Virus genome (UHGV): UHGV-0335014
Reading direction: 5' to 3' (one strand)
Source: a virus
Length of the DNA: 10,846 bases
Within the stretch, counting starts at the first letter, position 1. Each line of letters opens with the position of its first letter. Below, one piece after another: positions 1 through 10,846 of this stretch. Below the pieces are notes generated by a model, which had not been told where the DNA came from, did no database searches, and saw nothing but the letters and a program-made list of their open reading frames with translations. The position numbers and the translations under genes are program-made.

Positions 1-2706
1 ACGCTGAATGATTTTCTTGGTGCCATGACTGAGGATGATGTCCGTCCGGAGGCACTGCGCCGTTTTGAGCTGATGGTGGAAGAGGTGGCGCGTAACGCGT
101 CCGCGGTGGCACAGAACACGGCAGCCGCGAAGAAGTCAGCCGGCGATGCCGGCACATCTGCCCGTGAGGCGGCAACCCATGCGACTGATGCTGCAGGCTC
201 AGCACGCGCAGCCAGCACGTCAGCCGGACAGGCCGCTTCGTCGGCTCAGTCAGCGTCTTCCAGCGCAGGAACGGCATCAACAAAGGCCACTGAAGCGGAA
301 AAAAGTGCTGCCGCTGCAGAGTCCTCAAAAAGCGCGGCGGCCACCAGTGCCGGTGCCGCGAAAACGTCAGAAACGAATGCTGCAGCGTCACAAAAATCAG
401 CAGCCACTTCTGCATCCACTGCGACGACGAAAGCGTCAGAAGCCGCCACTTCAGCCCGGGATGCGGCGGCCTCAAAAGAGGCAGCGAAATCATCAGAAAC
501 GAACGCATCATCAAGCGCCAGTAGTGCCGCTTCCTCGGCAACGGCGGCAGCAAATTCTGCGAAGGCGGCAAAAACGTCCGAGACGAACGCCAGGTCTTCT
601 GAAACGGCAGCGGAACAGAGCGCCTCAGCTGCGGCAGACTCTGAGACAACAGCTGCATCATCGGCCCGTGAGGCGTCCATTAAGGCAGAGGAGGCAGCAG
701 TCAGTGCCACCGCCGCCGGAAAATCGGCAGAAAGCGCCGCATCATCCGCTTCAACAGCCACAACGAAGGCTGGCGAAGCCACTGAACAGGCCAGCGCAGC
801 AGCGAGGTCTGCTTCCGCAGCGAAGACATCCGAAACGAACGCGATAGCGTCGGAAACCAGCGCAGAATCCTCAAAAACGGCTGCCGCATCGTCCGCCAGT
901 TCGGCGGCGTCATCGGCATCATCGGCGTCTGCTTCAAAAGATGAGGCGACCAGACAGGCGTCAGCAGCGAGGGGCAGCGCCACGACGGCATCCACGAAGG
1001 CGACAGAGGCTGCTGGCAGTGCGGCAGCGGCAGCACAGAGCAAAAGTACGGCAGAATCCGCAGCAACGCGCGCCGAGACAGCAGCAAAACGGGCAGAGGA
1101 TATTGCATCCGCCGTGGCGCTTGAGGATGCGAGCACGACGAAAAAGGGGATAGTACAGCTCAGTAGTGCGACTAACAGCACTTCCGAGTCACTGGCGGCA
1201 ACACCAAAAGCCGTTAAGGCCGCGTATGACCTAGCTAACGGGAAATACACCGCACAGGATGCAACGACAGCACAGAAAGGGATAATCCAGCTAAGCAGCG
1301 CGACCAACAGCACGTCTGAAACGCTGGCGGCAACGCCAAAGGCAGTAAAAGCAGCCAATGACAATGCTGAGAAACGTCTGCAGAAAGATCAGAACGGTGC
1401 GGATATCCCTGGCAAAGATACCTTTACGAAAAATATTGGTGCCTGCCGTGCCTTCGGTGGGTCAGTAAGCACAACAACAGGAAACTGGACGACTGCACAG
1501 TTTATCGAGTGGCTGGATTCTCAGGGAGCATTTAACCATCCATACTGGATGTGCAAGGGTTCCTGGTCTTATGGCAATAATAAAATCATTACTGATACTG
1601 ACTGCGGTAATATTCATCTCGCCGGAGCTGTCATTGAAGTAATGGGGATAAAGTCAGCGATGACGATCCGCATTACCACACCGACCACCTCCACTGGTGG
1701 TGGAACAACTAACGCCCAGTTTACCTATATTAATCACGGAACAGATTATTCACCTGGCTGGCGAAGGGACTATAACTCCAGAAATAAGCCAACGGCATCA
1801 GAGATCGGGGCGTTACCGTCAGGTGGAACAGCAGTATCATCAGTTAATCTGGCTTCAAAAGGTCGGGTAACCGCGCTGACAGACAATACGCAGGGGGCAG
1901 CAGGTCTTGAGTTATACGAGGTGTATAACAACGGATATCCAACAGCGTATGGAAATATCATTCACCTGAAAGGGATGACAGCCGTTGGCGAAGGTGAGTT
2001 ACTCATCGGCTGGAGTGGTACAAGCGGTGCTCATGCTCCGGCATTTATTCGTTCACGACGGGATACGACCGACGCAAACTGGTCGCCGTGGGCGCAGCTT
2101 TACACCTCGGCTCATCCTCCTGCAGAGTTTTATCCAGTCGGTGCACCAATCCCGTGGCCATCAGATACCGTTCCGTCTGGTTATGCCCTGATGCAGGGGC
2201 AGACTTTTGACAAATCTGCATACCCGAAACTTGCAGTTGCTTATCCGTCAGGCGTGATCCCTGATATGCGTGGCTGGACGATTAAGGGCAAGCCCGCCAG
2301 TGGTCGGGCCGTATTATCTCAGGAACAGGACGGCATTAAATCGCACACCCACAGCGCCAGCGCATCCAGTACGGATTTGGGGACGAAAACCACATCGTCG
2401 TTTGATTACGGAACTAAATCCACAAATAACACCGGAGCACATACACACAACTTTGCTTACAACAATACTTCAGCATACGCAGAAACTCCCGGTACCGGTG
2501 GTGGAATGCATGCAACTAACACAAGAAAGACAGCAAGTAATCGCGTATTAAGCGCAGGAGCTCATACTCACACAGTAGCAATAGGTGCGCATACACATAA
2601 GCTCGCTATTGGTTCGCACACACACACCATTACCATTGCCGCTTATGGCAACGCGGAAAACACCGTAAAAAACATCGCATTTAACTATATTGTGAGGCTT
2701 GCATAA
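1..2706 (+). CDS. stf: Side tail fibre protein, 5'-truncated at the window edge (lambda Stf-like / P2 gpH-like). Ala/Ser-rich shaft with KTSETNA repeats, a lower-GC central module, and a His-rich HxH C-terminal region.
   Basis: Frame is open from nt 1 (no upstream stop), so the ATG at 25 is probably internal. From memory the translation closely matches lambda Stf (LNDFLxAMTEDD...[13 protein letters not shown] near the N-terminus; [14 protein letters not shown] motif; C-terminal PIPWPSDxVPSGY...[12 protein letters not shown]...[33 protein letters not shown] and the terminal [16 protein letters not shown]). The stop overlaps the tfa start as TAATG. Confidence 0.9.
361..842 (+). repeat. Ala/Ser-rich low-complexity shaft region of the tail fibre, with four dispersed copies of a K-T/S-SETNA coding motif
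   Basis: Near-identical 20-mers aaaacgtcagaaacgaatgc (361), aaatcatcagaaacgaacgc (488), aaaacgtccgagacgaacgc (570) and aagacatccgaaacgaacgc (823), embedded in GC-rich Ala/Ser codon repeats. Confidence 0.6.
1141..1356 (+). repeat. In-frame tandem duplication inside the tail fibre gene (two diverged copies of the segment encoding K/[28 protein letters not shown])
   Basis: Copy 1 starts at about 1141 (aaaaaggggatagtacagctcagtagtgcgactaacagc...), copy 2 at about 1273 (cagaaagggataatccagctaagcagcgcgaccaacagc...). The two encode nearly identical peptides with many synonymous nucleotide differences. Confidence 0.7.
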
Positions 2707-3305
2707 TGGCATTCAGAATGAGTGAACAACCACGAACCATAAAAATTTATAATCTGCTGGCCGGAACCAATGAATTTATTGGTGAAGGTGATGCATACAT
2801 TCCACCTCATACAGGTCTACCTGCAAATAGTACTGATATTGCTCCGCCAGATATTCCAGCTGGCTTCGTGGCTATTTTCAACAGTGATGAGGCATCGTGG
2901 CATCTTGTTGAAGACCATCGGGGTAAAACAGTTTATGACGTGGCATCAGGGGACGCGTTATTTATTTCTGAACTCGGCTCATTACCGGAAAATGTCACCT
3001 GGTTATCCCCGGAAGGGGAGTTTCGGAAGTGGAACGGCACAACGTGGGTGAAAGATGCAGAAGCAGAAAAAGTGTTCCGGATACGGGAGGCGGAAGAAAC
3101 AAAAAACAGCCTCATGCAGGTAGCCAGTGAGCATATTTCGCCACTTCAAGATGCCGTAGATTTGAATATTGCAACAGAGGAAGAAACATCGTTACTGGTG
3201 GCATGGAAGAAGTATCGAGTGCTGCTGAACCGTGTTGATACATCAAGAGCACCGGATATTGAGTGGCCAGCTTCCCCAGTGGAATCAAGGAGTAAACAAG
3301 CATAA
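2706..3305 (+). CDS. tfa: Tail fibre assembly protein (lambda Tfa / P2 gpG family chaperone)
   Basis: 199 aa beginning [44 protein letters not shown], which matches recalled lambda Tfa over nearly its whole length. Start overlaps the stf stop (translational coupling). GC-rich like stf. Confidence 0.9.
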
Positions 3306-3324
3306 AGGCTTTCATTTCAAACCA

Positions 3325-3348
3325 TTGTAGTCCAGTTTTTTGTATAGT
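3325..3348 (+). promoter_or_regulatory. Candidate sigma70-like promoter elements for the cargo gene (TTGTAG ... TATAGT)
   Basis: TATAGT (3343..3348) is a 5/6 match to the -10 consensus and TTGTAG (3325..3330) a 4/6 match to -35, but the spacer is only 12 bp, so this is weak. Placed in the 95-bp gap between the tfa stop and the likely ATG start. Confidence 0.2.
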
Positions 3349-3399
3349 ACCCTGCTCATTTCGGATGACATGTGTGATTTGGAATTTCAGGGTACCATT

Positions 3400-4578
3400 A
3401 TGAATGTTATTTCATCATTAAAACAGCTTAACAGACAGCGAAATATTAAAACAAAAAAGATAAAGACGAAGGCCAGACTGGCATTTCTAAAAATGCGATA
3501 CAGAAGGAAAACATCATTACAGCCGGATAGTTATAAAACAGTGTGCATTTTCATGCACATGCAAGCCATTGGTGACGGCATCGTTACCTCAGGGTTTATT
3601 AAACAACTTCAAAAATCCGGTATGGTGGTATATGTGATAGCACCTTCAAGAGTATCATTCCTCTTTACTGATATTGTTGGCGTGGATGCCTTTATATCTT
3701 ACGAGAAAAATAAATTTAACGAACTAAAAGCAAAGATAAAAAAACTGAATGTAGATCTTGTTGTTGACTTCTCAAATTTTGATAACACAGCGATAACCAG
3801 ATTGCAAACACTACATTTACTTAGACCTAAACACTCTATCTGTTTTAATCATCCTGCCGTAACTATTTTTGATACAAATATAATCGACAATCGTTCCATT
3901 CACACATCTGAAAGAATGAAAAAAGTTTTATCTTTACTAAAGATAAAAAATAATAATTATGCTGCAGCGCTTAATTTTGACAATAAAATATATGAGCCAG
4001 CAAATATTGTTGCAAATGAATTCAGGAAGAAAAACAAAAAATTAGTTATATTTAACCCTTATGGCTCTCAGAATAGCAGAACCTTATCTGATGAACAGAT
4101 AAACAAAGTACTAGCTTACCTTAATAACCTTAAGGGATATCACACAATAGTTTTTAATATGGGAAAACAGATTAATCATAATGGATTGGATAATGTGTCT
4201 CTATCTCCATTTTCTGATGCCGGATGTTCATTTGCATTGGTTCGCCATGCTGATTTTGTTATAACTGTAGATACTGCCATTGTACATTTAGCCAGTGCAT
4301 TAAACATTAGACAATACTGTATATATAATAACAGAATGCATGAAGGAAAATTCGAAAATAATATTGTGTGGGGGCCAAACAGCAAATTAGCGACTCAACT
4401 CACCACATCCGAACATCTAAGGTCTGAAGGGGGCGACGATATGCATAAATTCGACATAATGATCTTAATTAATGCTATCAAACAAGATTTGACAAACGAT
4501 ATACCGAATTACCACTCGGATTTAGGTTGTAAAAATAGATCCAGAAACCCAGAATTAGAAAGTAGCAATTCTTTATAA
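3400..4578 (+). CDS. AT-rich cargo gene: GT-B fold, GT9-like (ADP-heptose heptosyltransferase-like) glycosyltransferase with a Lys/Arg-rich N-terminal extension. Start is uncertain: TTG 3340 (ORF-track start), ATG 3370 or ATG 3400.
   Basis: Long ORF in a markedly AT-rich segment. Translation carries three motifs that line up with LPS heptosyltransferases WaaC/WaaF as recalled: an N-terminal IGDGIVTSGFIKQLQ (cf. IGPSWVGDxxxxxxLxxxLK), a central IFNPYGSQNSRTLSDEQ (cf. GFCPGAEFGPAKRWP) and FVITVDTAIVHLASALN (cf. IVTNDSGLMHVAAALN). An AGGG Shine-Dalgarno candidate lies 8 nt upstream of ATG 3400, and a TATAGT -10-like hexamer overlaps the TTG at 3340, which argues against that start. Confidence 0.7.
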   Translation: MNVISSLKQLNRQRNIKTKKIKTKARLAFLKMRYRRKTSLQPDSYKTVCIFMHMQAIGDGIVTSGFIKQLQKSGMVVYVIAPSRVSFLFTDIVGVDAFISYEKNKFNELKAKIKKLNVDLVVDFSNFDNTAITRLQTLHLLRPKHSICFNHPAVTIFDTNIIDNRSIHTSERMKKVLSLLKIKNNNYAAALNFDNKIYEPANIVANEFRKKNKKLVIFNPYGSQNSRTLSDEQINKVLAYLNNLKGYHTIVFNMGKQINHNGLDNVSLSPFSDAGCSFALVRHADFVITVDTAIVHLASALNIRQYCIYNNRMHEGKFENNIVWGPNSKLATQLTTSEHLRSEGGDDMHKFDIMILINAIKQDLTNDIPNYHSDLGCKNRSRNPELESSNSL

Positions 4579-4631
4579 AGTAGAAACCTCAACAGTTTTA
4601 TCAGGACCTACGATATATTATATAACAACAA

Positions 4632-4665
4632 GCCGCCCATTACCCAATATGAGGGTATTGGCGGC
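4632..4665 (-). terminator. Candidate intrinsic terminator closing the minus-strand tail operon after gpU; may also affect read-through from the plus-strand cargo gene
   Basis: Imperfect stem-loop GCCGCC-cat-TACCC / 8-nt loop / GGGTA-tt-GGCGGC (6+5 bp with a small internal loop), 9 nt beyond the U stop. On the minus strand it is followed by a T-rich tract (TTGTTGTTATATAAT). Lies in the convergent gap between the cargo gene and U. Confidence 0.35.
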
Positions 4666-4674
4666 AATGTAAAA

Positions 4675-5169
4675 TCAGAACAGTCCTTTAACTGAACTGG
4701 TCGCGCTGTTAAGAGATGATGTCACCTTATCTTTGAAGCCGGACAGCATATCGCTGAACGATGAGGATTGCAGGCGCTCCCGCAAATCCTCATCACAGCG
4801 TTCAAGGGTCAGTGAAAATTCTATCTTTTTCGCCTTACCGTAGCGATCAAACTCGGAACGGGTCGTATTCGTTCCGGTCAGGACATACATGCCGTAAATC
4901 TGCCCGACACCATCAATCAAAGGCCAGGGTCGTCCTGTATACGCCTGCGTGGTCAGCAGCGACAGCGACACTTCGCCACCTGTAATTTCAGGATAAAGCA
5001 CACCAGAAAGCACGATGCGATCATCACCTGCACCGATATACTGCCAGCTTGCTGAACGGTTAACGCGTTCATTTTTCACATGCCGCCAGCTTTTGTTTTG
5101 CTGTAACTGCTGATGCGGCAGCGTGCGCAGCTCAAAAACAAACATGCCGTAGATCATCATCATGGCCAT
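4675..5169 (-). CDS. U: Tail protein gpU-like (P2 U family), last gene of the tail operon
   Basis: 164 aa ORF immediately downstream of the tape measure gene on the same strand, which is the canonical position and size for gpU. A GAGGAG Shine-Dalgarno overlaps the T stop. Start may be the ATG at 5163 (the third Met) rather than 5169. Confidence 0.7.
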   Translation of the reverse strand: MAMMMIYGMFVFELRTLPHQQLQQNKSWRHVKNERVNRSASWQYIGAGDDRIVLSGVLYPEITGGEVSLSLLTTQAYTGRPWPLIDGVGQIYGMYVLTGTNTTRSEFDRYGKAKKIEFSLTLERCDEDLRERLQSSSFSDMLSGFKDKVTSSLNSATSSVKGLF

Positions 5170-5175
5170 GACTCC

Positions 5176-8019
5176 TCAATCTTTATCGTAAAAACTTCCA
5201 CGCCCGGCACGGGCGCGCCGTTCCATTTCTGCCCTGACCATTTCACCGACCAGTTTCGCCAGTTCGCGGGGATTCTGCGTAACAACGTTATGCAGATGAA
5301 CATGAATTTCACCGCCAAATCCGGAGGCAACAGGCTCCCGGTTACGGGAAGTTGCAGGAACTGATGCCACTGGCGATCGTATGGCCTCTGCCACCGGGCG
5401 GGAGCTGGCCGCAACAACAGGGACCAGCGCCGGAGACAGCGGAGCCGGAACCACAGGTGTGATATTAATTGCGGGGGCAGGCTTACTGACCTGCGCAATC
5501 TTCCGCTCCTGCCACTCCCCACGAACAGCAAGTGCGCGGGGCAGGTTCTTAAAGACAATATCGCCGAGGCCAATGCGTTTTTTCGTCTCATCAACCAGCT
5601 TACCTGTGTTATCAGCAATTTTGCTGAGTCTGCGTAGCGTACCGGTATTGCTGTCTGTGAGCGGTTTGTTGTCTTTGGGTTTATCACCTCCGGTGCCATT
5701 GCCATTTTCCACAGGCTTCGGCGGATTGATTTTCGCCAGGTCCCCCTGAAGCAAGGCAACCTTGTCCTGAAGAATGGCCGCACGCTGTGCGTCTTCGATT
5801 TTCTTGCGCGCCCTTTCCGCTTCATCCGGAAGCACACCGAGCTTTTCAAGTATCCACGCCAGCGTATCCAGCAACATTTTTGCAGGTGTCAGAACAAGTT
5901 GTAACGCACCGCCAAGAACGTTACCGAATATCTCGCCAGCACTGGTACATTTATCCAGCGTTTCCTTGCTGGACTCCATCGGTGACAGCAGCGATTTAAA
6001 CCAGTTAAACACCTGGCTGATCCCACTCCCGATTGCGTCAAAAACAGGACCAAACCGTTCAAAGGTTTCGCGCAACGGGGTCAGCCTTTCCATAATCCCG
6101 CTGAACACCCCGGCAAAAAATGCCCTGATGGGATCCCAGTATTTCCAGATAAGAACGGCAGCTCCGGCAAGCGCAGCCACGATAAGACCAACCGGACTGA
6201 ACAACGCCCCGATAGCGCCTCCCAGTAAAGAAACGGAACCCGTCACCATTCCCCACAGCGCAGGCAACACCCTGACGACATTCATTGACCGGGTAAGAAT
6301 GTCAAAACCAAGACGCAGGGTGGCCAGCTTCCCGTAAAGCACCCCAATAACCAGCGACAACGAGCCAATCGTTGCAGTCATTGCCAGCAGTGCACCGCCT
6401 GCAATCAGTAGCTGGCGCGTCAGTGCGGGATGGGCCTGCGCCAGCGCCGTCACCTTTGATACCACACGCGTGAGCCACTGCGTGACAGAACGCAGCGGAC
6501 CGTCAATCAGATCTGCAATGCGGATGCGCAACCCTTCCCATGCACTGCTGAGTGATTTCAGATCGCCGTCAAGGTTGTTGGCCATAACCTTTGCCGTGCG
6601 TTCAGCCTCACCGCGCGCCCCTTCAAGTTCTTTTCTCAGTTTGGGTAAGGAGCCGTCACCAGCCGCATCAACGAGGGCCATAAATGATGTGAAAGCCTCT
6701 TCTCCGGCAATGTCCTTAAAGAACGATACCCGGTCAACTTCCCCGTATTTGCGGGTAGCTTTATAAAGGTCAGCCAGCACATCCTCCATCGGGCGCATTT
6801 TGCCCCCGGCATCCGAGACAGACACGCCAAGCTCTTTCAGCGCCTCTGCTGCCGCCTTTGGCGGTGATGCCAGACGAGCCAGGCTGGCACGCATTGCCGT
6901 CCCGGCATCACTCCCTCTGATACCCATATTCGCCAGCACGCCCGCCATCGCTGCGGCCTGCTCCAGCGATATTCCCAGCTTACCCGCCACCGGACCTGCA
7001 TATTTCATGGTTTCGCCCAGCGCGCGAAGGTCAGTGTTAGTACGGGTAAACGCTGCTGTAAGCGTGTCACCGACCCGGTCCATCTGGTCAGCGGAGAGGC
7101 CGAACTGCGTCAGGATATTTGAGCCAATATCCGCCGTCTCGCCAAGGTCCATACCGCCAGCCGTTGCCATGCTCAGCACGCCCGGAAGCGCAGCCTGAAT
7201 GGCCTGCGGTGTGAAGCCAGCCATTGCAAGAAATGCCTGCCCACTGGCGGCATCGCCTGCGGTGAACTGCGTTTCAGAGCCAAGTTTTAACGCCTGCTCA
7301 CGCAGCGCCTTAAACTGCGGGCTGTTTTTGTCGATTCGCGTCAGTGCCTGAACGCGGGACATCTCTTTCCCGAACCCGATCGCAGGCTGCAAAAAACGCC
7401 CGGCAGCATAGCCGCCCGCCGCTGCCGCACCAATTGCCAGCGCACCACCTGTTTTCAGTTTTCCCGCTGTTTCCTGCGCGCGCGAATACCGCTCACGCGC
7501 CCGTGTTACACGCGCAAGCGCCTGCCGTTCGCGTTCAAGCTGGTTGTTGTACTGTTCGGTGCGTCTGATGGCCTGCTGGATGGTGTTATCGCTGCCTGTC
7601 AGGGAAATGCCGTGGCGTTTCAGCTCTCCGCCAAGCTCCCGCATTTTCTGAATTTCCCGTGTGCGCGATTCATTCAGGCGTTCAAGCCGGGTGCTTAACT
7701 GCTGCATCAGCTTTTGTTGTTTTTCGCTGAGCACTGTACCCGTGCGTTGTAACTGATTAAGGGCGTTAAGCTGGCGTCGTGCTTTCACGATGCCCGCATC
7801 CGCTTTACTGACAGCGTCACGGGCGCGCTCAAATGATCGCGCCTGACGCTCGAGATTTTTGATCGCCCCCTGCGTTCGCTGGATGGAGTCACCAAACTGC
7901 CCCATCAGGCGGCGGGCGTTTTCGGCAGGCCGGGTCAGCCTGTCAACGGCGCTGAAAGCGACCCGGATATCAAGAGTCTTCATTGTCTGCATTCCCGCTA
8001 CGAAGTGCCGCCCGCTCAC
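5176..8019 (-). CDS. T: Tail tape measure protein (P2 gpT-like)
   Basis: 947 aa. N-terminal region is rich in coiled-coil-like, charged sequence (RQLNALNQLQRTG...QQLSTRLERLNESRTREIQKMRELGGELKRHG), followed by Gly/Ala-rich and hydrophobic segments (LLIAGGALLAMTATIGSLSLVIGVLYG; GGAIGALFSPVGLIVAALAGAAVLIW), all typical of tape measure proteins. Sits between the E/E' chaperone genes and gpU. The ORF-track start is a GTG at 8019; ATGs at 7992 and 7983 are alternatives. Confidence 0.85.
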   Translation of the reverse strand: MSGRHFVAGMQTMKTLDIRVAFSAVDRLTRPAENARRLMGQFGDSIQRTQGAIKNLERQARSFERARDAVSKADAGIVKARRQLNALNQLQRTGTVLSEKQQKLMQQLSTRLERLNESRTREIQKMRELGGELKRHGISLTGSDNTIQQAIRRTEQYNNQLERERQALARVTRARERYSRAQETAGKLKTGGALAIGAAAAGGYAAGRFLQPAIGFGKEMSRVQALTRIDKNSPQFKALREQALKLGSETQFTAGDAASGQAFLAMAGFTPQAIQAALPGVLSMATAGGMDLGETADIGSNILTQFGLSADQMDRVGDTLTAAFTRTNTDLRALGETMKYAGPVAGKLGISLEQAAAMAGVLANMGIRGSDAGTAMRASLARLASPPKAAAEALKELGVSVSDAGGKMRPMEDVLADLYKATRKYGEVDRVSFFKDIAGEEAFTSFMALVDAAGDGSLPKLRKELEGARGEAERTAKVMANNLDGDLKSLSSAWEGLRIRIADLIDGPLRSVTQWLTRVVSKVTALAQAHPALTRQLLIAGGALLAMTATIGSLSLVIGVLYGKLATLRLGFDILTRSMNVVRVLPALWGMVTGSVSLLGGAIGALFSPVGLIVAALAGAAVLIWKYWDPIRAFFAGVFSGIMERLTPLRETFERFGPVFDAIGSGISQVFNWFKSLLSPMESSKETLDKCTSAGEIFGNVLGGALQLVLTPAKMLLDTLAWILEKLGVLPDEAERARKKIEDAQRAAILQDKVALLQGDLAKINPPKPVENGNGTGGDKPKDNKPLTDSNTGTLRRLSKIADNTGKLVDETKKRIGLGDIVFKNLPRALAVRGEWQERKIAQVSKPAPAINITPVVPAPLSPALVPVVAASSRPVAEAIRSPVASVPATSRNREPVASGFGGEIHVHLHNVVTQNPRELAKLVGEMVRAEMERRARAGRGSFYDKD

Positions 8020-8508
8020 GCCAGCTAACCACTTCGCCGGGCGTCATCATGAAGATTTCGGCGGGCGACCAGTTAAAAATGGCGGCAATATCCGCCACCA
8101 GATCTTCGATGTGCTCAAAGCACACCAGGGTGATTACGCTGCCGTCTCCTGCACGCTCTTCGCGCCAGAGTCTGGCTCGCTCATAAAATTTACAGCCACA
8201 GCGCACAACTGAATAAAATCGCGTGACGACATTTTTTTAATCATCACTTCATCCAGTCGTGGCGAGGTCACGCGAGGCAACAGCGTAAACATGGTATCCG
8301 CTTTCAGATTCAGCACATCAGACAGCGACAGACCACGCAGGGATCCAGCCTGCTCAATAGCCCCGGTGATCTCCACATACGTGATTTTTTCGCCACCACG
8401 CTCAATTGGTCGGGTCAGTTTTACGCCACGTTCGACAGCCATATCCTCACCTGCCGTCACATCATCCGCCACGGTGTTATTCCGGGTTTCAGTATCGATG
8501 TCTTTCAT
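7970..8508 (-). CDS. E+E': Predicted E+E' fusion product made by a programmed -1 translational frameshift at an A7 tract (minus-strand 8238..8232); E' portion ends at 7970
   Basis: The -1 frame relative to E is open from just after a TAA at 8242..8240 down to the stop at 7970. On the minus strand the E frame reads ATT AAA AAA ATG across a run of seven A (plus-strand T7 at 8232..8238). The E' reading frame overlaps the start of T. Conserved strategy in P2-like and other long-tailed phages. Confidence 0.5.
8134..8508 (-). CDS. E: Tail assembly chaperone gpE-like (P2 E family), zero-frame product
   Basis: 124 aa ORF between the tail tube and tape measure genes, with a strong AAGGAG Shine-Dalgarno 7 nt upstream of the ATG at 8508. 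Its 3' end is overlapped by a -1 frame ORF that runs on to 7970, the arrangement expected for the E/E+E' frameshifted chaperone pair of myovirus tails. Confidence 0.75.
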   Translation of the reverse strand: MKDIDTETRNNTVADDVTAGEDMAVERGVKLTRPIERGGEKITYVEITGAIEQAGSLRGLSLSDVLNLKADTMFTLLPRVTSPRLDEVMIKKMSSRDFIQLCAVAVNFMSEPDSGAKSVQETAA

Positions 8509-8563
8509 CAGTTGTCTCCTTTTCAGTCAGAGGCGACGCACTGCGCCGCCTGCATATTACTTA

Positions 8564-9076
8564 TCAGCCAAGCCCAAGCGCGGAACGGATACGGTCAGGC
8601 ACAATGTCCTTGCCGTCCTTCCGGTAGATGTGGTTCAACAGGTCGATTTCCCACAGCGGGCGATCGTTAACGCTCAGCTTGTAGTAGGTGTTTTTGACAG
8701 CGTAAGTGTGTGATGTGGCTTCGCCCTGTTTGGCTTCCCCCATATCAATTTCCGTCACACGCCCGCGCATCTCGATTTCATACAGATCGCTTTCTGCATC
8801 GGTGTAGTATTCACCCGCAAAACGCAGCAGCGTGCCGTCAATCGTGCCGCCATATTTAAGGAACAGCGCACGAACAGCTCCCCCCATGACAAAACTCGCA
8901 TCAAGCGCGGAGTCGTCCAGACCGAGATCAATACTTACCGCCCCCATCATGCCACCACCACGATAGCTGTCGGTTTTGCGCGTCAGTTTGGGCGGCGTGA
9001 CGGATGTCACTTTGCCCACTTCGTTTTCACCATCCACAAACAACGTAAAAAAGCGAAGATGTTTTGGTACAGCCAT
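8564..9076 (-). CDS. FII: Tail tube protein (P2 gpFII-like)
   Basis: 170 aa ORF directly downstream of the sheath gene, with the start overlapping the sheath stop (minus strand ..TGATG..) and a GGGAGGTG Shine-Dalgarno. Size and position match gpFII (about 172 aa in P2). Confidence 0.8.
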   Translation of the reverse strand: MAVPKHLRFFTLFVDGENEVGKVTSVTPPKLTRKTDSYRGGGMMGAVSIDLGLDDSALDASFVMGGAVRALFLKYGGTIDGTLLRFAGEYYTDAESDLYEIEMRGRVTEIDMGEAKQGEATSHTYAVKNTYYKLSVNDRPLWEIDLLNHIYRKDGKDIVPDRIRSALGLG

Positions 9077-10260
9077 CAGGCACCTCCCAGCACCGCAAAT
9101 GCGGGACCAAAGAATTCATCAGTAAACGTCTGGTAAAGCTCCATGTCTTCCAGTGGCGGAACGGGCGTATATTTGTAGCGAATACGCACACGTCCCTGAC
9201 GTAAATTCGTGGTGCCGTTATCCACCACGTCATACCAGCACTCCGCACCAATCAGTTTCCCGGCAGTAACCAGCGAATCCAGTTTTGCCCTGATGGCGCT
9301 GATAACATCCTTCACGTTCGCAGGTGTCAGTGGACTGTCGATGGTTTCAAACTGCGCTTCCGCAATTGAATCAGCCAGCACCTGTGCGGTTCGGGTATAC
9401 ACCTCAAAGATGTAGGCGTTCGTTTCCGGTGTGCGGTTGCCCCAGAAGCGGAACCCGTTGCGACGAATAATGGTCGTGATTTCTTTGTTGTTGAGGCTGT
9501 TGGCATCACTGTCTTCGGCCTGCAACGACCAGAACACATGCCTGGACATTCCCAGCACATTTTTAACCGGAACGTTGGACAGCGATTTGTGCCAGCCCTG
9601 CTCATGGTCAATGTACGCACGAAGGCCGCACGCATAAGCAGGCGCGGGGAACGTTTCGTTTTTGCCACTTTTCGGGTTGTAGGCGATGAAGTCAGGCCAT
9701 AAGAGCATCACCTCACGTTCGTTGAATTTCTGGCGGTAGGTAATCGCCTCAGCCATCGTGTTACAACCATGACATGTGGCATACACAAACGCGCGCAGTT
9801 TACCCGCAATCACGCACAGGGATTTTGTCACCGCCTCCGTGTCCAGCTCCGGCGCGGCCAGAATACGCGGACGGTATCCGATGCTTTCATCCTGCTCTGC
9901 AACAAGCAGCGCATACATCCCCGTATAGCTGCCGTCAGATTCAGAACCACCGATAACCAGTTGATCCTGCGTTTTTCCGTCTTCTTCTTTGTGTTCAGCC
10001 ACGCGAACGACGATCACCTTTGTGCTCACCTGGTCTGCGATGGCCTTAAGCGCACGATAAAGCGTCCCCGTTGTTCCGCATTTTCCCAGCACGTCATTGA
10101 CGCGGGTCAGCAATGTGGGCTTGTTCAGCGGGAACAGCTCCGCGTCCGCATCATCCGCCGTTGCCACGATACCGATAACGCTGGAATCAACATCGTTAAT
10201 CGCTGTTACCAGGTCGGTATTTTCCGTAACACGGGCACCATGAAAACGAGTTTCACTCAT
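9076..10260 (-). CDS. FI: Contractile tail sheath protein (P2 gpFI-like)
   Basis: 394 aa. Conserved blocks recalled from P2 FI and sheath homologues: AELFPLNKP, GTLYRALKAIADQ, KLRAFVYA, YRQKFNEREVMLLWPDF, HEQGWHKSLSNV, GFRFWGNRT, VYTRTAQVLAD, YKYTPVPPLE. Confidence 0.9.
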   Translation of the reverse strand: MSETRFHGARVTENTDLVTAINDVDSSVIGIVATADDADAELFPLNKPTLLTRVNDVLGKCGTTGTLYRALKAIADQVSTKVIVVRVAEHKEEDGKTQDQLVIGGSESDGSYTGMYALLVAEQDESIGYRPRILAAPELDTEAVTKSLCVIAGKLRAFVYATCHGCNTMAEAITYRQKFNEREVMLLWPDFIAYNPKSGKNETFPAPAYACGLRAYIDHEQGWHKSLSNVPVKNVLGMSRHVFWSLQAEDSDANSLNNKEITTIIRRNGFRFWGNRTPETNAYIFEVYTRTAQVLADSIAEAQFETIDSPLTPANVKDVISAIRAKLDSLVTAGKLIGAECWYDVVDNGTTNLRQGRVRIRYKYTPVPPLEDMELYQTFTDEFFGPAFAVLGGA

Positions 10261-10417
10261 AGCTTCAGCCCCTTGTATCCGTTAAATGATTCGGCAACAA
10301 TCATCACCCACCACGCGCGTAATCTCACCCCTGCGCCGTTCTCCCGCCACGGCGACAACAAAAAGCAGTAACCCCCTCCGCACGCACATGCGACCATGCC
10401 GCACAGGGAGGGAACAG

Positions 10418-10846
10418 ATGACCGACACCACCATGCAATTGCTCAGTCAGGGCACAGACCCCGTGAAAATGCCGGATTTTGATATTCTCGCGGAGGGTAA
10501 AACGCTGTCAGGCGTGGCAGAGCGCCTGATGAGCCTGTCACTGACCGACAACCGGGGATTTGAGGCGGACCAGCTCACCATCACGCTGGATGATGCAGAT
10601 GGTCAGTTGCAGCTACCGCCACGGGGCGCGCGCCTGACGGTTCTCATTGGCTGGAAAGGAGAACCGCTGACAGAAAAAGGCACTTACATTGTTGATGAAA
10701 TCGCTCACGAAGGACCGCCGGACAGGCTGACTGTTTCAGCCAGAAGCGCAGATTTTCGGGATGAATTTAACGTTAAACGTGAGGTGTCCTGGCATGATGT
10801 GACCGTTGAGCGTGTGGTATCCGCCATCGCTCATCGGTACGGTCTG
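10418..10846 (+). CDS. D: Tail protein gpD-like (late control gene D family), 3'-truncated by the window end
   Basis: ATG at 10418 preceded by GGGAGG with 7 nt spacing. The translation (...MSLSLTDNRGFEADQLTITLDDADGQLQLPPRGARLTVLIGWKGEPLTEKGTYIVDEIAHEGPPDRLTVSARSADFRDEF...SWHD) matches the conserved N-terminal region of P2 gpD as recalled. Open to the end of the window. Confidence 0.85.
   Translation, partial: MTDTTMQLLSQGTDPVKMPDFDILAEGKTLSGVAERLMSLSLTDNRGFEADQLTITLDDADGQLQLPPRGARLTVLIGWKGEPLTEKGTYIVDEIAHEGPPDRLTVSARSADFRDEFNVKREVSWHDVTVERVVSAIAHRYGL

Follow-up and report, generated by a model that had tools for sequence, protein, structure and literature searches.

We report that the viral genome UHGV-0335014 carries, in the stretch of 10,846 nucleotides analyzed here (the window), the tail end of a P88-like prophage in which the tail genes FI-FII-E/E'-T-U lie on the minus strand, between plus-strand stf, tfa and GT9 glycosyltransferase genes on one side and a plus-strand gpD on the other. 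We consider it very probable that this layout reflects an old FI-U inversion fixed throughout the clade, with late promoters that would share one activator site and with the GT9 gene as an independent moron. As judged from gene order in relatives, the inverted arrangement is the normal, fixed order of the P88 group, neither recent nor caused by the cargo gene, and the finding is an ordinary one.

Gene layout and identities

The genes and other features of the window, with coordinates counted from its first letter, are the following.

1(25)-2706, plus strand: tail fibre gene (gpH/stf analogue); Pfam Phage_fiber_2, phage_tail_N, Collar
2706-3305, plus strand: tfa, tail fibre assembly (gpG analogue); Pfam Caudo_TAP, E 1e-44
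3400-4578 (maximal ORF from TTG 3340), plus strand: GT9 glycosyltransferase moron; Pfam PF01075, E 4e-6
4632..4665, minus strand: GC-rich hairpin, then UUGUUGUUAUAUAAUAU; fold of 4575-4690, -31.9 kcal/mol, z = -2.8
4675-5169, minus strand: gpU tail protein, last gene of the inverted block; Pfam PF06995, E 1.5e-38
5176-8019 (maximal ORF), minus strand: gpT tape measure; Pfam PF10145, E 3.7e-58
8134-8508, minus strand: gpE; Pfam PF10109, 20.6 bits, under the Pfam cut-off of 25 bits
7970-8508 (stop 7972..7970), minus strand: predicted gpE+E' fusion, 179 aa; PF06528 (GpE) on the -1 frame part, E 2e-12
8564-9076, minus strand: gpFII tail tube; Pfam PF04985, E 2e-45
9076-10260, minus strand: gpFI tail sheath, first gene of the inverted block; Pfam PF04984, PF22671, PF17482
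10261..10417 (157 bp), between the two strands' genes: putative divergent FI-D control region; conserved activator-type site
10418-10846, plus strand: gpD (baseplate hub / late control gene D), N-terminal 143 codons; homology via P88 gp51

The tail fibre gene is cut by the left end of the window, with no in-frame stop in bases 1-24, and the phage_tail_N match places profile positions 93-134 on fibre residues 1-42. The C-terminal part of the fibre is of the lambdoid side-tail-fibre type, and the gene shares 94-96% identity with lambdoid stf genes; the likeness of tfa to lambdoid tfa genes stops at about 3268-3271. With tfa, the plus-strand late operon V-W-J-I-H-G comes to its end. Within the minus-strand block, the maximal ORF of the tape measure begins at a GTG (8019) and the P88 homologue measures 2808 bp; the start is probably the ATG at 7983 or 7992. 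Just upstream of T, a slippery heptamer (A AAT TTT at 8191..8185, minus strand) is predicted to join E to E' through a -1 frameshift. For the sheath, identity is 46.5% to P2 FI and 98-99.7% to the FI proteins of the P88 group.

The gene gpD runs past the right end of the window, and in relatives ogr comes next on the same strand. Because the 143-residue fragment alone has no Pfam or NCBIfam match, it was assigned through its full-length homologue: the fragment matches the start of P88 gp51 at 100% identity, and full-length gp51 matches PF05954 (Phage_GPD) and shares 49% identity with P2 gpD from end to end (E 2e-121). With homologues of FI, FII, T, gpU and gpD, the window has a P2-type contractile tail module of the Peduoviridae. 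Scans of the window for tRNAs, tandem repeats and Rfam families returned nothing relevant to the junctions.

An earlier note on this DNA had described the FI-U block as opposed to the fibre genes and gpD, with 4579-4674 as the convergent interval towards the cargo gene and 10261-10417 as the divergent one towards D. The ORF layout, Pfam and BLASTP bear out the opposed orientation, and both intervals are exactly as claimed; the gpD assignment made there is right as well, on the evidence of P88 gp51, PF05954 and P2 gpD given above. The canonical P2 order given there is likewise correct. The P2 RefSeq record lists V W J I H G, fun(Z), FI FII E E' T U D ogr, with fun(Z) alone on the minus strand and all the other genes together on one strand. 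The window departs from this canonical order, in which FI..U-D form one operon on the strand of V-W-J-I-H-G.

Conservation of the inverted order

The likeness of the window to P88-like phages starts at 4668, and the left 4.6 kb, comprising fibre gene, tfa and cargo gene, is not P88-like. Positions 4668-10846 align with eight P88-like phages at 92.6-98.6% nucleotide identity, in one collinear piece each; identity to P88, again in a single piece, is 97.0%, and to P884B11 98.6%. The inverted order is found also in P88 (Xuanwuvirus), P884B11, Shae_phiSM, 520873, 503458, Chuche, 500465-2 and PhiR44_2, and the block is inverted too in Klebsiella phage Kp4851-1 (Reipivirus). High identity together with the same synteny, U-T-E-FII-FI being inverted between G and D, places the window in the P88-like clade. 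This placement draws on 10.8 kb, and the ICTV criterion for a genus is identity across entire genomes.

The survey of gene order covered 57 chromosomal loci, located by their sheath protein and scored by tblastn. At a sheath identity of at least 69%, D-ogr is divergent from FI in every locus (23/23), and V/W/J/I lie on the strand opposite FI-U wherever these loci extend that far. The inverted form occurs in about 13 Enterobacterales genera in all (Salmonella, Citrobacter, Edwardsiella, Enterobacter, Kosakonia, Symbiopectobacterium, Mixta, Pantoea, Erwinia, Izhakiella, Kluyvera, Trabulsiella and Serratia). At a sheath identity of 48% or less, FI..U-D is collinear in all 31 loci that reach D; the sheaths of these distant collinear loci are 32-48% identical, and the loci belong to Alpha-, Beta- and Gammaproteobacteria. 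Since all 23 close loci are inverted and all 31 distant ones are collinear, we infer, by outgroup parsimony over the sampled loci, that the inversion arose as a derived trait in a single clade.

Because inversions are symmetric, their polarity cannot be read from a single genome, and the P88-type order might be taken as ancestral and the collinear P2 order as derived. We regard this as very unlikely, given the uniform collinearity of the distant P2-like loci reaching D (31/31) and the restriction of the inverted form to a single close-knit clade of Enterobacterales, whose sheaths share 69% identity or more. Moreover, gpD shows no conservation over its first 13-18 residues, either within the clade or with P2, as would be expected of a new 5' end made at the breakpoint.

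Of the explanations put forward in the earlier note, a genuine inversion or a lineage-specific tail architecture unlike that of P2 proved right, the block being inverted relative to P2 in the entire clade. The inversion is thus real with respect to the P2 order, but it is not peculiar to this sequence: relatives routinely share the arrangement. An assembly artefact, also put forward there, finds no support. It is true that the window's whole-length sequence is absent at 99% or above from the set of complete E. coli genomes, which would be compatible with a contig or segment mis-oriented during source assembly. Nevertheless, 36 complete E. coli genomes carry both junctions, collinear and in one place, with the GT9 gene included. 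A 6.2-kb alignment to eight independent phage genomes runs unbroken across the FI|D junction, and about 13 genera contribute 23 chromosomal loci with the same orientation. P88 and PhiSM, furthermore, are viable, plaque-forming phages (PMC5285337, PMC6456863). The chance of such an error is negligible.

Cargo gene and terminator at the G|U junction

The heptosyltransferase-like GT9 gene is AT-rich (GC 31-37%) and compositionally foreign, and ATG 3400 corresponds to the start annotated in its homologues. The PF01075 match of the cargo protein reaches 26.7 bits against a cut-off of 22 and covers residues 228-332 only, and the NCBIfam WaaC/WaaQ models score 21-23 bits, far under their cut-offs of 185-467. 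PGAP names the homologues 'glycosyltransferase family 9 protein'. Judged by these scores, the protein probably has a GT9 fold domain and is probably not an orthologue of the core heptosyltransferases. The cassette is present in 49 of 5426 complete E. coli genomes; a GT9 gene at this moron site is rare, and it may modify LPS.

The content of the G|U junction varies by clade member, being nothing at all, GT9, or an invertase that in some cases is accompanied by an alternative fibre. In most members tfa and gpU simply converge, with about 90-160 bp between their stop codons. P2-like phages have a known moron site downstream of G, between G and FI ('moron position 2'; PMC3573123), and in the P88-like clade this site falls between two convergent late operons. 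Because the G|U junction corresponds to this known P2 moron site, and because its content varies, the GT9 gene is best read as an independent moron at the usual site, here between G and U, and as unrelated to the inversion.

The earlier note had suggested that the inversion and the cargo insertion might be linked. In its strongest form, this would be a recent inversion of the individual genome, mechanistically tied to the arrival of GT9, and the cargo gene does abut one end of the block and does have a foreign composition. Most clade members, however, are inverted with no cargo whatsoever between tfa and gpU, and others carry invertase cassettes at the same place; the GT9 gene has the narrow distribution given above among E. 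coli genomes, yet the inversion is clade-wide. The region downstream of G is a general moron site even where the gene order is normal (PMC3573123; fun(Z) in P2), and none of the 25 longest inverted-repeat pairs joins the two junctions. A cargo-linked recent inversion was rejected on the existence of inverted relatives without cargo, and we consider it extremely improbable.

Between the convergent units, the hairpin at 4632..4665 is probably the intrinsic terminator of the FI-U operon, as predicted from its fold. In P88, a comparable hairpin separates the invertase gene from gpU.

Invertase genes and repeats

The window contains no invertase gene, and the gix-like crossover site of P88 has no match in it at up to three mismatches; the core of that site is likewise unmatched. 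Among the 25 longest of 128 inverted-repeat pairs in 3200-10846, none joins 4579-4700 to 10240-10430, and the nearest pair (I7; 19 nt, 84%) lies within the coding sequences of gpU and gpD. The inverted repeats or recombinase sites that the earlier note had proposed to seek at the junctions were looked for in this way, and none of those examined brackets the block. The attributes of a Gin/Cin/Hin-type invertible segment, a serine invertase and bracketing gix/cix-like sites of about 26 bp, are absent from the window.

These results bear on whether FI-U might be an actively switchable block, flipped by a Gin/Cin-type invertase such as the one beside gpU in P88. A serine invertase adjoins gpU in P88 and in Citrobacter, Edwardsiella (remnant) and Kluyvera relatives, gix-like crossover sites are recognisable in P88, and an ancient event at quasi-sites, catalyzed by such an invertase, is a possible historical cause of the inversion. 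Active switching is nonetheless exceedingly unlikely: the window has neither the gene nor a crossover-site match, none of the 25 longest inverted-repeat pairs surrounds FI-U, and the P88 invertase sites enclose the fibre-tip cassette only. The orientation, moreover, is the same in all of more than 30 relatives, and a flip would part FI from its promoter.

The FI-D spacer and candidate late promoters

The spacer between FI and D contains the site TTGTTGT-N12-AGAAC at 10338-10361 (minus strand), in which TGT-N12-AGA occupies 10357..10340 and is centered at 10348.5. One -10-like hexamer lies on either side, GATGAT at 10305..10300 (minus strand, FI side) and GACCAT at 10392-10397 (plus strand, D side), both 43.5-48.5 bp from the site center, and Shine-Dalgarno sequences stand ahead of the FI and D start codons. 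These elements are conserved clade-wide without indels, as TTTTTGTTGT-N12-AGA(A/C)C, a GATTAT/GATGAT box and a gAtCaT box. The 24-nt site pattern is found once in the window, and P88 has just two zero-mismatch copies of the same 12 specified bases, one in its P-O and one in its FI-D spacer; 6-base patterns, for comparison, occur by chance about 17 times per genome. Run over the whole P88 genome, the strict late-promoter pattern did not find the V-operon promoter, and it is therefore an incomplete description of the late promoters of this lineage.

The late promoters of P2 have a TGT-N12-ACA consensus and depend on Ogr (PMC3931495). The site in the window fits this consensus at 5/6 positions, with AGA in place of ACA. 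In the P2 record a single activator site (3057-3087) serves pO and pP, whose starts lie 55-56 bp on either side of it, and the -10 of pO lies 43-48 bp from the site center, which is the distance of both hexamers in the window. An ogr/Delta-like gene follows D in relatives. Ogr/Delta-dependent P2 late promoters combine an element of partial dyad symmetry, about 55 bp ahead of the start, with a weak -35. From the conserved motif and its geometry we infer that the FI-D spacer is a putative bidirectional late promoter of the Ogr type, its promoter function, Ogr dependence and bidirectionality all being predictions by likeness to P2. A generic scan for sigma-70 promoters and terminators gave numbers near the shuffled expectation and flagged neither candidate late promoter, as is expected of activator-dependent promoters.

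The rightward half of this prediction has a competitor, in which gpD-ogr would be driven independently of the shared site, by a constitutive sigma-70 promoter or by a second activator site in the spacer. The ogr gene of P2 has its own promoter (P2 record), the D-side -10 is weak (GACCAT, 3/6 matches, with the key A2 and T6 kept), and a conserved GC-rich block on the D side, CACGCGCGCG, could act as an operator of its own. The 157-bp spacer, on the other hand, has a single conserved TGT-N12-AGA site, the symmetric spacing of the hexamers fits the experimentally mapped site shared by pP and pO in P2, and gpD, as a structural late protein, should be co-regulated with the tail genes. We hold independent control of gpD-ogr to be possible but on the unlikely side. 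The start predicted for D from the shared site, at ~10404, would leave a D leader of only about 14 nt.

Proposed history and significance

In the history that we propose, an old inversion would have broken the P2 order at two points, in the moron region that follows G and precisely between U and D. FI-U would have kept its Ogr-dependent late promoter PF, which would now read leftward from the 157-bp spacer, and its transcript would end at the hairpin terminator facing the end of the fibre operon. The inversion would have cut gpD and ogr off from PF, and they would be transcribed rightward from the same spacer instead. Both promoters would use the one partly dyad-symmetric site centered at 10348.5, about 55 bp upstream of predicted starts near 10293 (minus strand) and 10404 (plus strand), a form of shared use modelled on the single activator site of P2 that serves the divergent pP and pO.

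We give about an even chance to the further proposal that the inversion was tolerated, and then became fixed in the clade, because P2-type activator sites are inherently bidirectional, so that the PF site could drive both FI-U and D-ogr. If true, the P88-like phages would possess a second divergent late promoter of the pP/pO kind, ogr would come under direct positive autoregulation through D, and the P2 late circuit would have undergone a regulatory rewiring not described before. The second bidirectional Ogr-dependent promoter predicted here is easily testable in P88 or PhiSM.

The inverted arrangement is already known from deposited genomes, and we found no explicit published statement of it. 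Searched with targeted terms, the P88 (PMC5285337) and PhiSM (PMC6456863) papers make no mention of the inversion, and among the papers listed for P2-like phages or Peduoviridae with inversion or gene order, none describes it in title or abstract. The outcome is a clean negative: the arrangement is not a misassembly, not recent and not tied to cargo, so it need not be flagged in P88-like prophages. It also provides a clade-defining synteny character that sets P88-like phages (Xuanwuvirus, Reipivirus and many Enterobacterales prophages) apart from P2/186-type phages.

Comparison with known systems

P88 and its Xuanwuvirus relatives, including Citrobacter phage PhiSM, share with the window the strand of U-T-E'/E-FII-FI, the divergent D(-ogr) and the convergent fibre operon, and the P88 group has the same FI-D spacer, TTGTTGT-N12-AGAAC site included. 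P88 differs in what lies between tfa and gpU: where the window has GT9, it has a Gin-like invertase together with an alternative fibre-tip cassette that can be inverted. Its fibre and tfa are of their own type, whereas those of the window are of the lambdoid stf/tfa type (94-96% to lambdoid phages).

P2 has the same tail genes in the same internal order, the kind of E/E' -1 frameshift that is predicted for the window, a moron site downstream of G and sites of the TGT-N12-ACA type about 55 bp upstream of its late starts, and its pP/pO promoters, a divergent pair on a single site, have the same geometry as the FI-D spacer. In P2, however, FI-D is one rightward operon on the V-G strand, with U and D overlapping by one base, whereas in the window the entire block intervenes between U and D, and D begins on the opposite side of the PF region. 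At the right half-site the window has AGA where P2 has ACA or CCA.

Other P2-like tails have been rearranged in a different manner. In Stenotrophomonas phage Smp131, V-W has moved beside the FI operon, and a single palindromic site serves PP' and PO' (PMC3931495); the alphaproteobacterial loci of our survey have the order J-I ... V-W-FI. In both cases V-W (or I-J, in locus L039) is translocated and FI..U-D is still collinear, and none has FI-U inverted relative to D. Smp131 and the alphaproteobacterial loci make clear that gene order in P2-like tail/baseplate regions can vary and that late promoters move with their modules.

Gene organization of the window

Genes were called from six-frame open-reading frames (ORF) and Pfam matches, and the resulting map is unambiguous.

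Genes of the window (coordinates, strand, identity)
Left edge to 2706, plus: tail fibre gene (Phage_fiber_2, Collar)
2706-3305, plus: tail-fibre assembly gene tfa (Caudo_TAP)
3340/3400-4578, plus: AT-rich ORF with a family 9 glycosyltransferase domain (GT9), probable start ATG at 3400
4675-5169, minus: gpU
5176-~7983, minus: tape measure T
8134-8508, minus: E
8564-9076, minus: tube FII
9076-10260, minus: sheath FI
From 10418, off the right end, plus: N-terminal part of gpD, by identity to the N-terminus of P88 gp51

The minus-strand genes gpU, T, E, FII and FI are contiguous, and both the ORF layout and the Pfam matches bear out the inverted block that the earlier note had observed, together with its coordinates. 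The E' extension was found in the -1 frame (PF06528), and a canonical slippery heptamer (A AAT TTT, 8191..8185) would generate a 179-aa E+E' fusion with its stop at 7972..7970. The fibre gene is truncated by the window edge, its phage_tail_N match starting at profile position 93 and bases 1-24 lacking an in-frame stop. Its N-terminal third (25-1100, plus) is a long low-complexity Ala/Ser/Thr-rich repeat region of ~60% GC that gives rise to long spurious ORFs in other reading frames (146-847, plus; 246-1364, minus). The GC content of the GT9 ORF is 31-37%, versus 52-60% in the surrounding DNA. By itself, the gpD fragment has no Pfam or NCBIfam match; P88 gp51 begins with exactly this sequence, and at full length gp51 matches Phage_GPD and shares 49% identity with P2 gpD over its whole length (E 2e-121), upholding the earlier gpD assignment. 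The P2 gene order of the earlier note also agrees with the P2 RefSeq record (V-W-J-I-H-G, fun(Z), FI-FII-E-E'-T-U-D-ogr), in which the whole V-to-ogr series lies on one strand except for fun(Z), on the minus strand.

Related phages and prophages

In megablast searches, positions 4668-10846, comprising the block, the FI-D junction and gpD, match phage genomes as one collinear piece, with 92.6-98.6% identity to P884B11 (Xuanwuvirus), Citrobacter phage Shae_phiSM and Escherichia phages 520873, 503458, P88, PhiR44_2, Chuche and 500465-2. The annotated P88 genome carries V, W, J, I, H and G on the plus strand, followed by an inverted alternative fibre cassette with a serine invertase, then U, T, E', E, FII and FI on the minus strand and D on the plus strand; tblastn locates an ogr homologue, unannotated in the P88 record, 3' of D on the plus strand. 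Since the int, C, cox, A, Q-P, O-N-M-L and lysis modules of P88 are all in P2 orientation, its difference from P2 is a simple inversion of FI-U. The inverted arrangement is functional, since both P88 and PhiSM can be induced and form plaques (PMC5285337, PMC6456863).

The comparison with P2-like relatives proposed in the earlier note thus shows a lineage-typical arrangement. That note had also entertained an assembly artefact, which is ruled out for practical purposes by 36 complete E. coli genomes, two of them inspected, in which 80% or more of the window lies in a single place, GT9 and both junctions included. Within Peduoviridae, the window belongs to the P88-like group; its fibre/tfa module is of lambdoid type and its GT9 moron is rare.

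Fibre and tfa (1-3271) share 94-96% identity with the side-tail-fibre/tfa modules of mEp460, PhiR42_1 and other lambdoid phages, and P88-like homology begins only at 4668. The element is a mosaic, which suggests that lambdoid and P2-like prophages have exchanged fibre modules. The 3' end of tfa, its last ~35 bp (3272-3305), groups with the GT9 cassette and not with the lambdoid match. A full-length match to Rfam IS009 (RF02111; 187.7 bits, gathering score 117) at 3049-3247 (plus) lies wholly within tfa, and this 'sRNA' family appears to coincide with a conserved segment of the prophage tfa gene.

Distribution and origin of the inversion

We surveyed 57 chromosomal loci with sheath-protein relatives, taken from one-genome-per-species contigs, placing FI, FII, E, T, U, D, ogr, V, W, J and I by tblastn with P88-type and P2 queries. 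The outcome is bimodal by sheath identity. At 69% identity or more, D and ogr diverge from FI in 23 of 23 loci, and V/W/J/I lie on the strand opposite FI-U wherever the locus extends that far; these loci come from Salmonella, Citrobacter, Edwardsiella, Enterobacter, Kosakonia, Symbiopectobacterium, Mixta, Pantoea, Erwinia, Izhakiella, Kluyvera, Trabulsiella, Serratia and one contig labelled Vagococcus. At 48% identity or less, FI..U-D is collinear in all 31 loci that reach D, spanning Gamma-, Beta- and Alphaproteobacteria. A Reipivirus, Klebsiella phage Kp4851-1, is also inverted. Outgroup parsimony makes the inverted order a derived trait of a single Enterobacterales-associated clade, which encompasses at least two ICTV genera.

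The Vagococcus-labelled sequence (sp. WN89Y, NZ_JBQPOM010000071.1, L006) is a 226-kb contig, and the sheath of the P88-like prophage on it shares 98% identity with that of the window; for a contig attributed to this Gram-positive genus, contamination or a mislabelled assembly is most likely. Among alphaproteobacterial loci (L035, L038-L059), those of Sphingomonadales and Caulobacterales read J-I ... V-W-FI, with V-W relocated beside the sheath gene, and L039 has I and J inverted downstream of D; FI..U-D is collinear in all of these rearranged loci, L039 included.

The first 13-18 residues of gpD (10418-10470) are conserved neither among inverted-clade genera nor with P2, and the protein beyond them is 70-79% identical. 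Together with the one-base overlap of U and D in the P2 record, this is consistent with a breakpoint exactly at the U-D boundary, gpD then gaining a new 5' end.

Inverted repeats and recombinase sites were sought at the junctions: none of the 25 longest of 128 inverted-repeat pairs in 3200-10846 joins them, and the window contains neither the P88 gix-like site at up to 3 mismatches, nor its core, nor an invertase gene. In P88, the gix-like sites (TTATCNAANACCTCGGTTTACAGGAA) flank the fibre-tip cassette only. FI-U orientation is identical in all relatives, and a switchable FI-U segment is very unlikely. An ancient quasi-site event by a P88-type invertase could be the historical cause of the inversion; nothing testable of such an event remains.

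Gene content of the G-U junction

A search of every inverted locus for tfa, gpU, invertase and GT9 reveals three states. Most members have nothing at the junction, the tfa and gpU stop codons lying ~90-160 bp apart. P88, Citrobacter youngae, Edwardsiella (a remnant), Kluyvera and the Vagococcus-labelled locus have an invertase there, in some cases accompanied by an alternative fibre cassette, and GT9 occupies the site in the window and its E. coli relatives. Of 5426 complete E. coli genomes, only 49 carry the GT9 cassette, in each case on the chromosome and adjoining a tail-fibre assembly gene. The site downstream of G is 'moron position 2' of P2-like phages (PMC3573123), the same position occupied by fun(Z) in P2. 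Given a variable junction at a known moron position, the coincidence of inversion and cargo is trivial: one breakpoint fell in the moron region, which is still a landing place of morons. The linkage of cargo insertion to inversion suggested earlier is ruled out by the cargo-free inverted members and the rarity of GT9; of that initial interpretation, a real evolutionary inversion stands, typical of the clade in phage genomes and chromosomal loci alike, and artefact and cargo linkage fall.

The GT9 protein falls far short of the WaaC/WaaQ equivalog cut-offs. Its target may be the LPS core, the receptor class of P2-like phages (PhiSM uses LPS core GlcIII; PMC6456863), and by modifying this core the protein could act in lysogenic conversion or superinfection exclusion. 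Both inspected GT9-carrying E. coli prophages (L002, 19352-20573; L003, 10352-11326) are defective, with an internal deletion that fuses a head gene (head-completion or capsid) to the fibre gene or gene I. Lysis and baseplate genes are gone and the FI-U block, D, ogr and GT9 are intact, which could reflect domestication or moron retention.

The FI-D spacer

The inversion cuts gpD, an essential structural gene, off PF, the P2 late promoter of the FI operon, and the upstream plus strand offers only 5.6 kb of antisense read-through; the D promoter must therefore lie within the 157-bp FI-D spacer. Alignment of this spacer from 22 clade loci and the window reveals four elements kept at indel-free spacing. 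These are a Shine-Dalgarno sequence ahead of both start codons, the motif TTTTTGTTGT-N12-AGA(A/C)C, and two boxes, GATTAT/GATGAT towards FI and gAtCaT towards D, the latter reading GACCAT in the window.

Candidate regulatory features of the window (coordinates, strand, identity)
4632-4665, minus: GC-rich hairpin, then a U-rich run
10305..10300, minus: GATGAT -10-like box, FI side
10338-10361, minus: putative activator site, pattern unique in the window
10357-10355 and 10342-10340, minus: TGT and AGA half-sites, centre 10348.5
10392-10397, plus: GACCAT -10-like box, D side

Late promoters of P2 carry TGT-N12-ACA and depend on the late activator Ogr (PMC3931495). In the P2 record, the PF activator site lies ~57 bp upstream of the mapped start, and a single site (3057-3087) serves the divergent pP and pO, with mapped starts (3016, 3127) 55-56 bp to either side and the pO -10 (GAAACT) 43-48 bp from its centre. 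In the window, the GATGAT and GACCAT boxes are each 43.5-48.5 bp from the site centre. With zero mismatches, TTGTTGT-N12-AGAAC (24 nt) occurs at exactly two sites in the 35.8-kb P88 genome, the P-O spacer and the FI-D spacer, versus ~0.004 matches expected by chance for its 12 fixed bases. An ogr/Delta-like gene lies 3' of D in the relatives.

The shared pP/pO geometry and the double occurrence in P88 support a bidirectional promoter. The most economical reading would be a second pP/pO-like late promoter: PF would have travelled with the inverted block, its dyad-symmetric activator site now also serving D-ogr. We give this predicted Ogr-site model even or slightly better odds, its limits being AGA in place of the consensus ACA, a weak D-side -10 and a short predicted D leader (~14 nt). 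The main alternative is an independent D promoter inside the same spacer. On the D side of the spacer, a conserved GC-rich block (10370-10385) separates the activator site from the D-side -10; it reads CACGCGCGCG in most genera and CATGTGCGTGCG in the window, and might act as a second operator or stand in for a -35. Small ORFs in the spacer (L001 17563-17694, annotated as P88 gp50; window 10282-10434, minus) overlap the predicted promoter elements and the FI start, and are probably spurious gene calls. At the opposite end of the block, the hairpin and U-rich run at 4632-4665 form a plausible terminator for FI-U; in P88, a comparable hairpin separates gpU from the invertase gene.

Discussion

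All deposited genomes of the P88-like group show the inverted tail operon, which is thus a feature already known, even if no description of it was found in term searches of the P88 and PhiSM papers or in the titles and abstracts of papers listed by broader full-text searches. Only the predicted activator site shared by PF and the D promoter (PD) is modestly new. If true, bidirectional use of an Ogr site would amount to a rewiring of the late expression of D-ogr and FI-U. Rearrangement of the P2 tail module has been documented in another lineage, that of Smp131 (PMC3931495).
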